Origin: a candidate division Kazan bacterium GW2011_GWA1_50_15
GTDB lineage: Bacteria; Patescibacteriota; Kazan-3B-28
DNA: 64,000 nucleotides
Direction: 5' to 3'
Assembly: GCA_001029795.1 (NCBI GenBank)
Contig: CP011216.1
Coordinates: 350,767-414,766 of the forward strand
The position numbers and the translations under genes are program-made. The notes under the pieces are model-generated. The model saw only the letters and a list, made by a program, of their open reading frames with translations. It searched no databases and had not been told where the DNA came from. This document shows, one piece after another, positions 40,852 to 46,743 of the stretch; within the stretch, counting starts at the first letter, position 1; each line of letters opens with the position of its first letter.

Positions 40852-41853
40852 TTAGTTTAGGTCAAGGTCGGTGGCAGCCTCGGCAGCAGCCAGCTTGCGA
40901 TAGGTTAGCCATGACAGCCCCAGAGCGGCCAAGACCAAACTGGCGCCCACCCACGGCCAATCCTCGGGACCAGACCCCGGCAGAGCGCCGCTAGTGTAGG
41001 TGTAGCCATAAAAACTGGCTTCGGCACCGTCAGCCCGGACCACCTTCACCGAGCGGGTACTGCGACCCACCAAGTCGGGTTCAGCCGGCACCTGCATCAA
41101 GATAATGCTGTCCGTCCAGTCTAAGATAATAGCCAGCTTCACGCCCACATATACCTTGCTCGCATCCGGCTGGTAGCTACCAAAGTTGCCACCATAGATA
41201 GTTACCTGCTGAGTAACGGTTTTGTTGCCGCTCAGCGGCACCAGCGAGGTGATATACGGATCAGTAGTGGTCCCGCCTGGGATAGGAGTTGGGGTAGGAG
41301 TAGGAGTTGGAGTCGGTGTTGGTGTAGTCCCGGCAGTAATCGTGATAGCGGCCGAACCACCGCCAGTCACAGACAGAATATCGCCCTGAGCTGGATCTTG
41401 ATGTGCCACATTGGACTGGGCTTGATCCACTCCCACGGTCGTGCTGCCGGTCTTAAGCGTCTTAAAGGTCAAAGTCGAAACCTTGGCGTTGGCCGAATTA
41501 ACGGCGGTCGAAGTGCCCGGTGCCACTAGTCCCGTTACCAACTGCCGGCCAGCCCCCTGGGCCAAGACAATCGGCACAGTGAATAGGCTGCCGGCGTTGT
41601 TAGCGCTCACGAACTCCAAATAAGTCGTATCAAAAGTAACTACCGCATCCACCCCCACCACCGGCTGGCTGGCTGTGTTGACCATTAGGTCGATAGTAAA
41701 GGTATTAGCCGCGCCGCTTAAGAAAGTGGCTGACTTGGCGGCCGGGCTGAAAAAGATGGTCGCATTGCCAGCGGCCAGGGCAGGCACAAAACCGGCCAAC
41801 ACCAATCCAGTGCCGGCAAGTAAGTTAGCTAGTTGAACGATCTGCTTTTTCAT
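40852..41853 (-). CDS. cell-surface protein with (TP)n linker, IPT/TIG-like domain and C-terminal TM anchor
   Basis: Signal peptide, [13 protein letters not shown] linker, [26 protein letters not shown] (IPT-like), and a C-terminal hydrophobic helix. Confidence 0.45.
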
Positions 41854-41912
41854 TTTTAGTTTTGAGAGGTCCCCACCGTATTATTTTATTATACTACAAT
41901 TTCCTTTTTTTG

Positions 41913-42800
41913 TCAAGAGGTGGGTGTCTCACCTCCTAAGGCCCCTGCCGCTTCCTGGAACTTCTCGATAAAGATAGAGTAGTCCAAGACATCTACCGTA
42001 CCGTCCTGGTTCAGGTCGGCAGTTGGCTCTGTTACCACAGGTGCATCGGTATCGGTCAAATTTGAAAGTAAATCCACGGGCGCTTCTTCGCCGTTACCGC
42101 TCGTCCCCTCGTAAATAATATTCATCTCGGCTACGGCTGGACGATCACTGGCCACATAATCGGTGAAGATAAATTTGAACTGGACGAACTGCGGCAGGCT
42201 GTTCTCCCACGCCACCTGCTGACGGCGATAGCCATTGAAAGTATCTGTCGGAATAAATTCCAACGTTCTAAATGACGCAGCTTGCGCTTCGGCCACGGTT
42301 GCCCCCGCCCGGTAGGCATAAGCGATCGTTGAGCCCGCCGGTTGGTAGTCCATGACTTGCAACGCTTTGATAAATAGGTCACTGTCGCCCAGATCAACTA
42401 TCGGCGAGATATAACTGGCGGGACGCGTTACCACTCCGGTCAACTCTTCCGCGCTTACCAGCGGCATCACAAACCCAGCTTTGGCGCCAGGGTCTTGCGG
42501 CTGACCTGTAAAGTAATAAAAGGCGGCTGTGTTATCCAGTACAGCGTCGTTACGATCGCCGAGATCAGCCAGCCACACGGCAGTACTAGTTCCAAAGAAG
42601 TCATCATCGCTACTCATACTGATAACTTGCAGCCGGGCGGCGCCGGCGCCGATCAGCTTCAAAAATCCTTCCAAGAAGTTGCTTCTTGCGATCAAGGTAA
42701 TGGCCACTACTAAGCCGGCGATCGAAACCAGAGCCGTAACAAGCCAGCGATAGTCCCTGGGTTGTGGTTGCAATGGGGGTTGTGGAGCAATAGGTTCCAT
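41913..42800 (-). CDS. membrane-anchored surface protein with C-terminal dockerin-like Ca-binding module
   Basis: Start taken at MEPIAPQ (ATG 42800) to avoid overlapping the upstream gene. The C-terminal DLNQDGTVDVLDYSIFIEKF matches dockerin / EF-hand-like D-x-N-x-D-G-x-V-D. Confidence 0.4.
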   Translation of the reverse strand: MEPIAPQPPLQPQPRDYRWLVTALVSIAGLVVAITLIARSNFLEGFLKLIGAGAARLQVISMSSDDDFFGTSTAVWLADLGDRNDAVLDNTAAFYYFTGQPQDPGAKAGFVMPLVSAEELTGVVTRPASYISPIVDLGDSDLFIKALQVMDYQPAGSTIAYAYRAGATVAEAQAASFRTLEFIPTDTFNGYRRQQVAWENSLPQFVQFKFIFTDYVASDRPAVAEMNIIYEGTSGNGEEAPVDLLSNLTDTDAPVVTEPTADLNQDGTVDVLDYSIFIEKFQEAAGALGGETPTS

Positions 42801-42813
42801 ATGTATATGTAAG

Positions 42814-45800: not shown

Positions 45801-46470
45801 AAAATCCTGCTGCTGACATCGGCGGGAGCATTTTGCCTCCGCGCCAGAGTAACGCCAGCGCTCTTTGGTCGCTGCCAAAAATCTGACGGGGTTGGGATAT
45901 GGGTTTATCCCAGTCGGTAGCGCCAGCGGTGCTGATCACCCCGCCCGTGATCGGCACCCAGACACTAATAGAGCGAGTAGTAACAACAGTGGAGGTCTGA
46001 TCGGTATTGTTAATGTAAATAGCCTGCAGAGTTACATTGTTCAAGCCTTCCTTCCCAAAGAAGCTGAGTGGGAGAGAACTTAGATCCCAGTCGAACTGGC
46101 CCTTTACCAGATCATCGCCGATAATATCGCCGTCGTTGGGCTGACGCTGATAAAAGAACAAATCTACCTCGTCTGCGCTACTGACGGCTTTAACCCGCAG
46201 TACATCTCCTGGGTTGCCCGGGCGCAATGCGTTGTAGTGGTATTGAAATTCGATACGGTAGTGCGACCGCCACAGGAGAACCTCGTTTTGGACAGGAGCG
46301 TTGAAGTTGGCGCCCAAGCCGGTTTGGGCATTCACTTGCTGACTGACACCCTGATAAACCATCCAGCCAGTGAAAGAGATGGCTAACATTAATATCAGCG
46401 CCCAGTGGACGTAGGTCGTGTTGGACCGCGGCTGATGGTCCTGCAACTGTTTGGTTAGCCGATCGAGCAT
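42814..46470 (-). CDS. giant (1218 aa) membrane-anchored cell-surface protein
   Basis: N-terminal signal anchor, a long beta-rich extracellular body with Ig-like periodicity, and a C-terminal DFDNSNSVDSLDVFPFVGG dockerin-like segment. Confidence 0.55.
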   Translation of the reverse strand: MLDRLTKQLQDHQPRSNTTYVHWALILMLAISFTGWMVYQGVSQQVNAQTGLGANFNAPVQNEVLLWRSHYRIEFQYHYNALRPGNPGDVLRVKAVSSADEVDLFFYQRQPNDGDIIGDDLVKGQFDWDLSSLPLSFFGKEGLNNVTLQAIYINNTDQTSTVVTTRSISVWVPITGGVISTAGATDWDKPISQPRQIFGSDQRALALLWRGGKMLPPMSAAGFYNNAKANAVYFMDGQTDPKIDIQKDVPWGANGWPISGDYIWSNIGSQFWNRTSGPAVGMEFTGYGTDGRGTFVGGDKTYTDAVSMQLGSFVTWTAPAGNAGPVYPGSTYTLKWTVDPEAKPPVGLLADITASYYNQSGIWVNVPVVSGMDAFIGTRAWTIPANVKLGSKMKFSITTKLGGVQYSVTSSGDLSISTVAAPITLTSPTPIGTSPDNGVIKPEIVGGQRSFTLTWDAGSVPANTLAQISYTLKDGSVEGAFVGSVDLASGSYTWINPLENVTGVGGERGSAYFIGKEASLVFRPINGSFVYTSYPVVFGGCLTVTQPQLNEVRAGGRYTIRWSYPSAYADILTTVHANTRYLRISYKALSEPATAWKTIVDLEPDVITVKDVTKVTSYDWAVPSDLVPGAQYQFSFTWVYNLSALVGGQTLYAKSSFPPATFMVAGSGPLVNFTKPTAGEVYPINSSMTTRWTVDPQGWDLTGLQMTVSYETADSLPLLTGVITAPGFEVPFNPEATDFSATWTVRPQLAGRLVKIKVELNKTSSYDGGSFKSSAFSVISAGRTGGDGTQPSDYAAYYTSTRYTPPEVAGNASLKDLATVGVAGSNLTVPGVTMHYWVALYNADQQLIKRLPIQSGQSITGDTPADLAATKSFGIEIAFEITQPITLDTRPKVRSVSIAYTTDFATAPFMITVGPPTTGTTDDNLQAYAEYTINLFLSPNTPEFAGQVTFALASRIDSNGQDAAGKFDGEFIPATADVQTGSVKLRLHSATVGTYTFTVKGTSGEWEAVSPPATLIVQSTSDGETIAQAILNFTAPVQRGPEKDPNLSFTLSLYQGLERLYSGTTSTDANDQGTLTTSPISDTTTLKFNETYTAYIKTPKHLSRKANEDVRFTPPISGDIITVALTFPELPAGDIMPGSPTEAPTPYGSWDKVDSTDWSQFLGEIAQTLLTKLADFDNSNSVDSLDVFPFVGGYSHWLESGALRADGIPRPPDAPPAG

Positions 46471-46497
46471 AGGATTTGTGTTTGTTTGAACCGCCCT

Positions 46498-46743
46498 TTA
46501 TTGGGCTGTCTCTGGTACCGTAATGGTGGCGTAGTCGCCCTGGGCGTCTGCGCCGGCCTCAGTCCCCACGTGAGTCCCGCCGTCCCAAGTATTGAAGACT
46601 GCCGCTGGCCCCACCTCGGCTTTGGAGCCAAAGAACTTCAGTAGGTTACCGATCTGTTCAGAGAAGAGTACAACCAAAACCACCGCGACTACCGCGGCGA
46701 TGACGAGACCGATCTTGAACCCCCGAGTCTGGAAAAAGTACAT
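46498..46743 (-). CDS. small secreted or membrane protein; first gene of the surface operon
   Basis: 81 aa with an N-terminal hydrophobic segment FKIGLVIAAVVAVVLVVLF; downstream of a TTGACA-17-TACAAT promoter. Confidence 0.4.
   Translation of the reverse strand: MYFFQTRGFKIGLVIAAVVAVVLVVLFSEQIGNLLKFFGSKAEVGPAAVFNTWDGGTHVGTEAGADAQGDYATITVPETAQ

Follow-up and report, generated by a model that had tools for sequence, protein, structure and literature searches.

A putative cohesin–dockerin surface-display cluster between rpmE and obg in a candidate division Kazan bacterium

Introduction

Non-cellulosomal cohesin–dockerin pairs from archaea, Clostridium perfringens and other organisms were reportedly described by Peer et al. 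in 2009. Such pairs occur in archaea, including anaerobic methanotrophic archaea (ANME), and in bacteria, and are presumed to link extracellular proteins (PMC9012536). Ruminococcus flavefaciens has group-2 dockerins with a single Ca loop; they dock to the cohesin of the cell-anchored ScaE, can do so two per cohesin, and are, according to the authors who described them, the only known functional truncated dockerins (PMC12270676). Bacteria belonging to the candidate phyla radiation (CPR; Patescibacteria) are thought to be cell-attached, and few of their surface proteins have been assigned a function or mechanism. In a cultivated Saccharibacterium, one envelope protein with a dockerin domain is essential (PMC10633639), and modules of this kind may therefore be relevant to epibiotic life. 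The subject of this report is a cluster of four genes, designated P1 to P4, in a stretch of 64,000 nucleotides (hereafter the window) from candidate division Kazan bacterium GW2011_GWA1_50_15 (contig CP011216.1, positions 350,767 to 414,766). With moderate confidence, the cluster is read here as a minimal system by which a CPR (Kazan) bacterium displays proteins on its surface through non-cellulosomal cohesin–dockerin pairs, with binding between the parts presumed.

A sequence-only reading of the window had described a single operon of four co-oriented minus-strand genes, behind a TTGACA-17-TACAAT promoter and ahead of a strong terminator, and had proposed that dockerin-like ends shared by two of the products imply assembly on a cohesin-like scaffold. 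Domain searches, a search for a cohesin-like partner gene and a comparison of synteny were suggested as checks, and failure of the C-terminal motifs against dockerin models, together with the lack of a cohesin-like gene in the genome, was named as evidence to the contrary; neither objection stands. No description of the rpmE-obg locus was found in the literature on cohesins or dockerins in CPR/Patescibacteria.

Results

P4, a cohesin-bearing predicted anchor

P4 (41853..40852, minus strand) is an open reading frame (ORF) of 333 aa, and no entry with its exact sequence was found in the protein collection searched. The predicted product consists, in order, of a Sec-type signal peptide (..VPALA|AG), a cohesin domain, a (TP)6 linker, an IPT/TIG domain, a GPED motif, a predicted C-terminal membrane helix and the residues YRK. 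The linker, the IPT/TIG domain and the C-terminal anchor had been recognized in the sequence-only reading and are present; the cohesin had been overlooked, and the candidate partner gene was found within the cluster itself.

The cohesin domain (residues ~30-175; 41329..41766, minus strand) was located using Pfam, AlphaFold and Foldseek. P4 matched the Pfam Cohesin family (PF00963) at E 0.0033 over model positions 15-131 of 139, and Cohesin was matched by 13 of the 19 family members (phmmer relatives) when these were scanned singly (E<=0.01; best E 7.6e-15). Close relatives number five; the distant ones lie mostly on Parcubacteria-like contigs and have precomputed Cohesin domains. When a profile of the P4 family was compared with the sequences in PDB, cohesins ranked first, weakly (E 0.12). 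The AlphaFold model has a predicted local distance difference test (pLDDT) score of 85-95 across residues 31-174. Cohesins made up most of the top 50 Foldseek matches of this model in PDB (E 6.3e-10 to 1e-5, template modelling (TM) score on the target 0.65-0.79), the remainder being TIG/Ig-containing proteins that align to the other half of the model. The top match was 2w1n, the cohesin and FN3 domains of C. perfringens GH84C (E 6.3e-10); others included CaCohA2 (6kgf and 6kgc; TM 0.75-0.77, root-mean-square deviation 2.8), 2vo8 (TM 0.79), 2jh2, the OlpA and OlpC cohesins (3ul4, 4dh2) and the non-cellulosomal cohesin 2xdh of Archaeoglobus fulgidus. Taken with homology, the predicted structure shows that residues ~30-175 of P4 have a cohesin fold, the nine-stranded beta jelly-roll of that family.

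The IPT/TIG domain (residues 199-287; 40993..41259, minus strand) matched Pfam TIG (PF01833) at E 1.9e-8, with 34.6 bits against a gathering score of 20.9, and relatives of P4 carry TIG too. The C-terminal anchor (residues 291-333; 40855..40983, minus strand) comprises LPGSGPED, a helix at residues 296-328 in the AlphaFold model and a short charged tail. Invariant in seven P4 relatives are G295, P296, E297, D298, W301, G303, Y318 and R319, and the family motif LP(G/N)(S/N)GPED, followed by the helix and YRK, has neither the Thr of LPXTG nor the second Pro of PEP.

This family C-terminus (G-P-E-D, W, G, helix, Y-R-K/R) resembles a sorting signal, yet fits no curated model. No LPXTG, PEP-CTERM or other sorting-signal model was matched by the P4 tail (NCBIfam, E<=1), and no SLH domain was found in P1-P4 (Pfam, E<=1). 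Sortase, PEP-CTERM and SLH anchoring were rejected on these grounds, and, because no such model matches, the predicted C-terminus is read as a simple membrane anchor whose motif is peculiar to the family.

The dockerin-like tails of P3 and P2

P3 (42800..41913, minus strand; 295 aa; GenBank AKM84858) has an isoelectric point (pI) of 4.1 and is 100% identical to VE98_C0001G0404 of GW2011_GWA1_50_15, encoded on a contig of 602,646 bp. In a mechanical ORF list it starts with TTG at 42944 (343 aa, overlapping P2); the orthologues begin at ATG ('MEDLTPQP'/'MEPTTPQP'), and the 295-aa reading is therefore the right one. The protein consists of an N-terminal hydrophobic helix with the invariant NFLEGFLKLIGAGA, a variable middle domain and a single C-terminal dockerin repeat. 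The dockerin-type Ca loop and helix, DLNQDGTVDVLDYSIFIEKF, was located at residues 262-281 (41958..42017, minus strand) by Pfam and by profile. The loop, DLNQDGTVDVLD, followed by YSIFIEKF, fits the pattern D-x-N-x-D-G-x-x-D/N-x-x-D plus helix and is invariant in four orthologues; the residues D-L-N-x-D-G...D-Y..F are invariant in the tails of the family. Candidate Ca ligands at loop positions 1, 3, 5, 9 and 12 are D, N, D, D and D.

P3 matched Pfam Dockerin_1 (PF00404) at E 0.012 with half of the model covered, and four P3-type relatives matched it at E 0.0014-0.0029. A profile of the four P3-type tails, compared with PDB, matched about 20 solved dockerins (best E 1.9e-8) and generic EF-hand proteins only at E>0.07. 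The orthologues (40-76% identity) keep the single repeat throughout, and neither the four aligned orthologues nor the P3-type protein encoded on a 455-kb contig (L015) have a second dockerin repeat. Because no orthologue has a second repeat, these comparisons show the predicted P3 tail to be a naturally truncated, single-repeat dockerin.

One P3 orthologue, P0021 (387 aa; L011, 470..1633), joins the middle domain of the window P3 to that of a 204-aa protein from another Kazan genome (L001, below). Because these two middle domains are combined in one protein, the cargo appears to evolve by domain shuffling between a conserved leader and a conserved dockerin repeat.

P2 (46470..42814, minus strand; 1218 aa; AKM84859.1) has a mass of 131 kDa, a pI of 4.9 and one Cys, and is rich in Thr, Gly and Ser. 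Four or more Ig-like modules, in which an 'xTxxW' motif recurs, lie within residues ~310-780; no internal repeats were found by BLASTP self-comparison, the recurring motif alone being seen. In Pfam, P2 gave a weak Ig-like Kre9_KNH match alone, with no enzyme domains, and a full-length P2 profile had no match among PDB sequences. Relatives are few: exhaustive HMMER searching of 1.84 billion representatives returned 10 proteins at E<=1e-3, half of which share only the last ~200 residues, and a word-indexed search returned two matches, one of them P2 itself. These searches gave no functional annotation transferable from relatives.

An alignment of the relatives' tails revealed a conserved beta-sandwich, 'FTAPVQRG...YTAYIKTPKHLSRKA' (residues ~1027-1126; 43093..43392, minus strand), that always precedes the dockerin-like tail. 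When the last 210 aa were modelled using AlphaFold with an 8-row alignment, the sandwich had a pLDDT of ~80 and matched only generic CnaB/prealbumin-like sandwiches in Foldseek (E>=1e-3). Behind it the family profile places a divergent two-repeat dockerin-like module (residues ~1127-1200; 42871..43092, minus strand), with repeat 1 as 'AGDI..(insert)..WDKVDSTDWSQFL' and repeat 2 as DFDNSNSVDSLDVFPF (loop at 42913..42948). In the sequence-only reading both proteins were said to end in the motif; it is present as DLNQDGTVDVLDYSIFIEKF in P3 and as DFDNSNSVDSLD in P2, where it stands at residues 1175-1186, 32 residues before the C-terminus. The aligned P2-type tails share the sandwich 'FTAPVxxG...YxAYxKTxxHLSxKA', repeat 1 'AGDI..insert..D.V.S.DW..L' and repeat 2 'DFNNDG.VN..D..PF', and several members of the tail family have canonical loops (e.g. 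DFNGDGAVNTSD). Candidate Ca ligands at positions 1, 3, 5, 9 and 12 of the P2 repeat 2 loop are D, D, S, D and D.

A profile of the tails of the 10 relatives matched solved dockerins (6kg9 at E 5.1e-5), with CelD (4cj0/1clc) aligned over both repeats. Individually, seven of the 10 P2-family tails matched Dockerin_1 (best E 1.9e-4), and the giant protein of L015 reached 22.2 bits across both repeats (positions 5-49 of 57). The isolated P2-type tails of P0019 and of a second related locus (L005) gave no Pfam dockerin match, that of L001 gave E 0.21, and the L005 tail returned noise alone in a phmmer search of PDB. At the family level, the profile comparison shows the P2-type tails to be homologous to dockerins, the window's own tail being a weaker case (below).

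Related loci

The cluster is flanked by obg on one side and by rpmE-prfA-prmC-gmk-rluD on the other (identities via Pfam on syntenic genes). Kazan RIFCSPHIGHO2_01_FULL_44_14 (L001, identical to L009) has genes for proteins of 76, 1211, 204 and 432 aa in the gene order of the window. In GCA_028717565.1 (L005) the products are 72, 291 (P3 type), 95 (P1 type), 1327 (P2 type), 347 (cohesin and TIG) and 156 aa long. The 455-kb contig (L015) encodes proteins of 227, 467 (two-repeat dockerin), 424 (single repeat), 93, 1742 (two-repeat dockerin and PKD) and 437 aa (cohesin and TIG). At the rpmE...obg site, therefore, a cohesin and TIG gene stands with one to three dockerin-tailed genes in L001/L009, L005 and L015. 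Cohesin and dockerin-tailed genes also adjoin on a short contig with obg as its sole flank (L016), where the cohesin and TIG gene lies next to a gene for a 642-aa dockerin-tailed protein, and on fragmentary contigs of the metagenome-assembled genome with L008/L011.

In all, cohesin and dockerin-tailed genes occur together in about five related lineages, with order and number shuffled, so the suggested comparison of synteny bore out their association. Wherever the flanks of a P4 relative were usable, hidden Markov models (HMMs) built from these same families detected a dockerin-like ORF in the locus. The P4 family is rare, with four loci among 185,579 species genomes and three in a metagenome collection, and the co-occurrence statistics from these scans are correspondingly small (4 + 3 loci). 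Since the anchor and dockerin-tailed genes remain associated through changes of order, number and middle domains, co-occurrence offers the best available evidence that they are functionally linked.

The L015 locus (7255..17404) is an expanded six-gene version at the same rpmE-side site. Its 227-aa protein combines a P1-type leader with thrombospondin-type-3-like Ca-binding repeats, and the dockerin-like module of its 1742-aa giant is not terminal, being followed by a PKD domain. Farther afield, in Parcubacteria, distant cohesin relatives are encoded two genes away from a Dockerin_1 protein. Three Parcubacteria-like contigs (L002, 7505..21530; L012, 5176..17524; L013, 5592..17527) each carry genes for a Dockerin_1 protein (620-634 aa), HSP20, a Cohesin protein (507-509 aa) and a giant protein (5,441-7,381 aa); the giants carry DUF2341, and that of L012 also Laminin_G_3. 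On metagenome contig Ga0180007_10002674 (L019, 8384..15562, plus strand) five adjacent ORFs have cohesin-like domains, two of them with dockerin-like repeats as well; a sixth ORF beside them bears just a dockerin-like repeat. The arrangement resembles a chain of adaptor scaffoldins.

Weighing of the cohesin–dockerin pairing

Several points weigh against the surface-display reading, and they bear on two alternatives. The window's own P2 tail is the weakest part of the case: alone it gave no Pfam Dockerin_1 match (E<=10), its repeat 1 has an insertion of 6-20 residues, with non-canonical residues at ligand positions 1 and 3 of the loop, and its AlphaFold model is poor (pLDDT 40-58), so that the structure gives no verdict there. 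All dockerin and cohesin matches of the window proteins lie below Pfam gathering scores, though Cohesin is clear in relatives of P4, the P3-type proteins scoring 16.2-19.2 bits on Dockerin_1 (gathering 22.9) and P4 18.1 bits on Cohesin (gathering 24.1). P3 has one loop only, and both P2 and P3 bear N-terminal hydrophobic helices which, if uncleaved, would anchor them without a cohesin. On these observations the dockerin-like segments could be EF/F-hand loops that bind Ca for stability and dock nothing, P2 and P3 being held by their N-terminal segments and P4 acting as an independent adhesin. Such an explanation is rather improbable. The tail profiles single out dockerins, which rank before EF-hand proteins; each of the lineages encodes a genuine cohesin fold in a neighbouring gene; and functional single-loop dockerins are known (PMC12270676).

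The dockerin-like ends proposed in the sequence-only reading thus hold up at the level of family profiles (P3 1.9e-8, P2 5e-5), with the qualification that P3 has half a dockerin and that P2 repeat 1 carries an insertion; it is the window P2 tail on its own that fails the dockerin models. Of the suggested domain searches, TIG was found above threshold, Cohesin and Dockerin_1 below it, and SLH not at all in the four proteins.

A second alternative accepts that the parts have been identified correctly and holds that they are not partners of each other: the P4 cohesin and the P2/P3 tails would bind other ligands, encoded elsewhere or belonging to a host, and the site would be an island of surface protein genes. 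Pairing here is deduced from gene co-occurrence, and the specificities of cohesins and dockerins are not readable from sequence. Two or three dockerin tails face a single cohesin, a mismatch that two dockerins per cohesin would ease, and P4 has its own promoter (below). The examined 64 kb represent about 10% of a genome of roughly 603 kb, and cohesins outside this tenth could be the real partners. The 64-kb window yielded no further ORF of dockerin-like or cohesin-like character; among its 560 six-frame ORFs of at least 50 aa, P2 and P3 alone matched a regular expression written for the dockerin/EF loop. Cohesin and dockerin-tailed genes also travel together through rearrangements in about five lineages. 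Mutual non-partners are therefore considered unlikely, though the idea keeps some weight, and pairing of P2 and P3 with P4 remains the preferred interpretation.

Transcription signals

P1 (46743..46498, minus strand; 81 aa; AKM84860.1) is the first gene of the cluster, and P1, P2 and P3 are all entered in GenBank as 'hypothetical protein'. All four ORFs of the cluster, the TTGACA-17-TACAAT promoter and the terminator were found as described in the sequence-only reading. Promoter 1, which has a TG extension, lies 5' of P1 (46808..46780, minus strand), and the intrinsic terminator (40836..40811, minus strand) has an 11-bp stem with 8 G-C pairs, then the T-run TTTTTATT. A second promoter that the reading had overlooked, a perfect sigma-70 consensus of TTGACA-17-TATAAT, stands directly 5' of P4 (41916..41888, minus strand) and overlaps the P3 stop codon.

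Promoter-like sites are no more frequent in the region than in shuffled sequence (3 found, 4.3 expected); the two sites are credited because of their placement and their conservation in orthologous loci, not their count. Promoter 1 has a counterpart in L001 (TTGACA-17-TATTAT, 5' of the P1 homologue), and promoter 2 is kept as tcTTGACA...tgtagTATAAT in L001 (9961..9989) and in L005 (15213..15241), where a different gene lies upstream. Because a conserved internal promoter precedes P4, the cluster probably comprises two transcription units, P1-P2-P3 and P4, rather than the single operon first supposed, and the cohesin anchor gene is probably expressed on its own.

P1 and the leader sequences

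P1 has one N-terminal hydrophobic helix, a conserved EQIGNLLKFFGSKAE motif and an acidic tail of ~36 aa, and orthologues of 76-95 aa are found in L001, L007, L005 and L015. Two family-specific leaders recur in the cluster (46470..46324 in P2, 46743..46615 in P1 and 42800..42630 in P3). Type A, 'MLxRLxKQL...GWxVYQG..AQ', is found in P2, where it reads 'MLDRLTKQL...GWMVYQGVSQQVNAQ', and in several relatives. Type B consists of a hydrophobic helix followed by 'QIGxLLxxFGSKA' in its P1 form or by NFLEGFLKLIGAGA in the P3 variant. Neither leader matched a known signal type; judged by eye, both end in small residues at -3/-1, which would allow cleavage.

The hydrophobic helices of P1 and of the 93-aa protein of L015 gave weak Flp/Flp1-like Pfam matches (E 0.02-0.07), and the cluster could on that account be taken for a pilus- or fimbria-like fibre with P1 as a Flp-type pilin and P2 as a tip adhesin. 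On the Flp_Fap and Flp1_like models P1 scored 13.4-14.7 bits against thresholds of 32-33.5 (14.7 against 33.5 bits at best), and the homologues have no conserved G at the prepilin cleavage site (RG|F, KA|F, RN|I). The cluster is without pilus assembly genes (ATPase, platform, prepilin peptidase), and the same type B leader is fused to large non-pilin proteins (P0026 and the 227-aa protein of L015). P1 as a Flp pilin was rejected for its scores, far under threshold, and the want of a conserved cleavage site, and a pilus is judged very improbable.

Other features of the window

The window carries 23S and 5S rRNA genes without a 16S gene, as well as tmRNA. The 23S rRNA gene (28626..32060, minus strand) is ~510 nt longer than the Rfam model (region 27113..32060), and the space between it and the 5S gene holds an ORF for a 182-aa LAGLIDADG endonuclease (28049..28597; Pfam E 1.9e-25). 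Other putative surface proteins are a 646-aa protein with PKD and SBBP beta-propeller repeats (19108..21048, minus strand) and two proteins of 778 aa (54410..56746, plus strand) and 772 aa (59891..62209, minus strand) with faint NHL and Kelch repeat matches. A dockerin-like tail is absent from all three.

Discussion

The cohesin fold predicted in P4, the dockerin-related tails of P3 and of the P2 family and the conserved co-location of their genes argue for a surface-display system, and the cohesin scaffold that the sequence-only reading had deduced from the shared ends is largely supported, with P4 in that role. P4 would be exported by Sec and kept in the membrane by its C-terminal helix, as its domain order and the predicted helix suggest, and TIG and the Thr-Pro linker would form a stalk presenting the single N-terminal cohesin away from the membrane. 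P2, an acidic, Cys-poor Ig-like array, and the smaller P3 would be exported via their family-specific leaders and retained because their C-terminal dockerin-like modules dock onto the P4 cohesin in a Ca2+-dependent manner. The single repeat of P3 resembles the truncated group-2 dockerins of R. flavefaciens, two of which bind the ScaE cohesin at once, and P3 might do likewise. Because P4 has its own perfect, conserved promoter, the anchor may be made independently of the cargo, perhaps in excess.

The complex would constitute a cell-surface coat or a set of adhesins for contact with other cells or surfaces. A coat or adhesin is suggested rather than polysaccharide degradation, because enzyme domains are missing from the cargo, whose number, order and middle domains differ between lineages; carbohydrate-active modules (glycoside hydrolases, GH; carbohydrate esterases, CE; polysaccharide lyases, PL; carbohydrate-binding modules, CBM) were absent from P1-P4 (Pfam, E<=1). 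The cluster is not a cellulosome, as it has no carbohydrate-active enzymes or CBMs, one cohesin only and no SLH or sortase anchoring.

A more far-reaching combination may be offered as speculation and, taken as a whole, is improbable. The rpmE–obg locus would be the main surface-coat or host-attachment module, in which a wall-spanning P4 under its own strong promoter displays a fast-evolving, lineage-specific set of dockerin-tagged proteins. P2 would then be an S-layer-like coat or adhesin, and P3 a second natural class of functional single-repeat dockerin, the first outside cellulosomes, sharing the cohesin with P2 or bound two at a time. The leaders and the GPED motif would mark a dedicated route of export and anchoring.

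The locus gives four 'hypothetical' proteins a concrete architecture of cohesin anchor and dockerin cargo. New here are the CPR host, the cohesin-TIG membrane anchor, the Ig-like giant cargo, the truncated and insertion-bearing dockerins and the fixed but hypervariable rpmE-obg site. If the surface-display reading is true, cohesin–dockerin assembly extends to the surface biology of ultra-small bacteria, and P3 may be a second natural example of a truncated single-repeat dockerin. The parts are small (a cohesin of 146 residues, tags of 30-80 residues) and could supply orthogonal affinity pairs.

Comparison with known systems

The non-cellulosomal pairs of A. fulgidus (2xdh), C. perfringens GH84C/GH33 (2w1n, 2vo8, 2jh2) and ANME archaea resemble the Kazan cluster in having a single cohesin and no cellulolytic enzymes, and the fold match to them is direct. 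The cluster differs in that its cohesin appears to be mounted on a dedicated membrane anchor of type I that has a TIG stalk, its dockerins are on Ig-like giants, one dockerin being a single repeat and the other having an insertion in loop 1, and its place between rpmE and obg is constant in a CPR lineage.

The Parcubacteria clusters (L002, L012, L013) likewise encode distant homologues of the P4 cohesin domain, with E 1e-4 to 3e-7, near a giant surface protein and a protein with a dockerin. In these, however, Big_13 takes the place of TIG, the genomic site is another, the giants are 5,400-7,400 aa long and there is no P1/P3-type leader.

Like the anchoring scaffoldins of cellulosomes (C. thermocellum OlpA/OlpC/SdbA, R. 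flavefaciens ScaE), P4 would be a cell-bound one-cohesin protein that captures dockerin-tagged proteins, and solved type I dockerins top the match lists of both tail profiles. Unlike those scaffoldins, P4 is predicted to be anchored by a C-terminal membrane helix, with no SLH or LPXTG match; its cargo is without GH, CE, PL or CBM modules, and the scores lie under Pfam gathering thresholds.

The group-2 dockerins of R. flavefaciens differ from the P3 tail in several respects: sequence similarity is weak, the P3 module is only ~30 residues long and the Kazan organism is non-cellulolytic. The group-2 dockerin solved with CohScaE (9gvb_B) was marginal among the profile matches, at E 0.036 for the P3 tails and E 0.27 for the P2 tails. 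The likeness lies in the architecture, in that the P3 family has one C-terminal Ca loop and helix and is encoded beside the gene of a predicted cell-anchored protein with a single cohesin.

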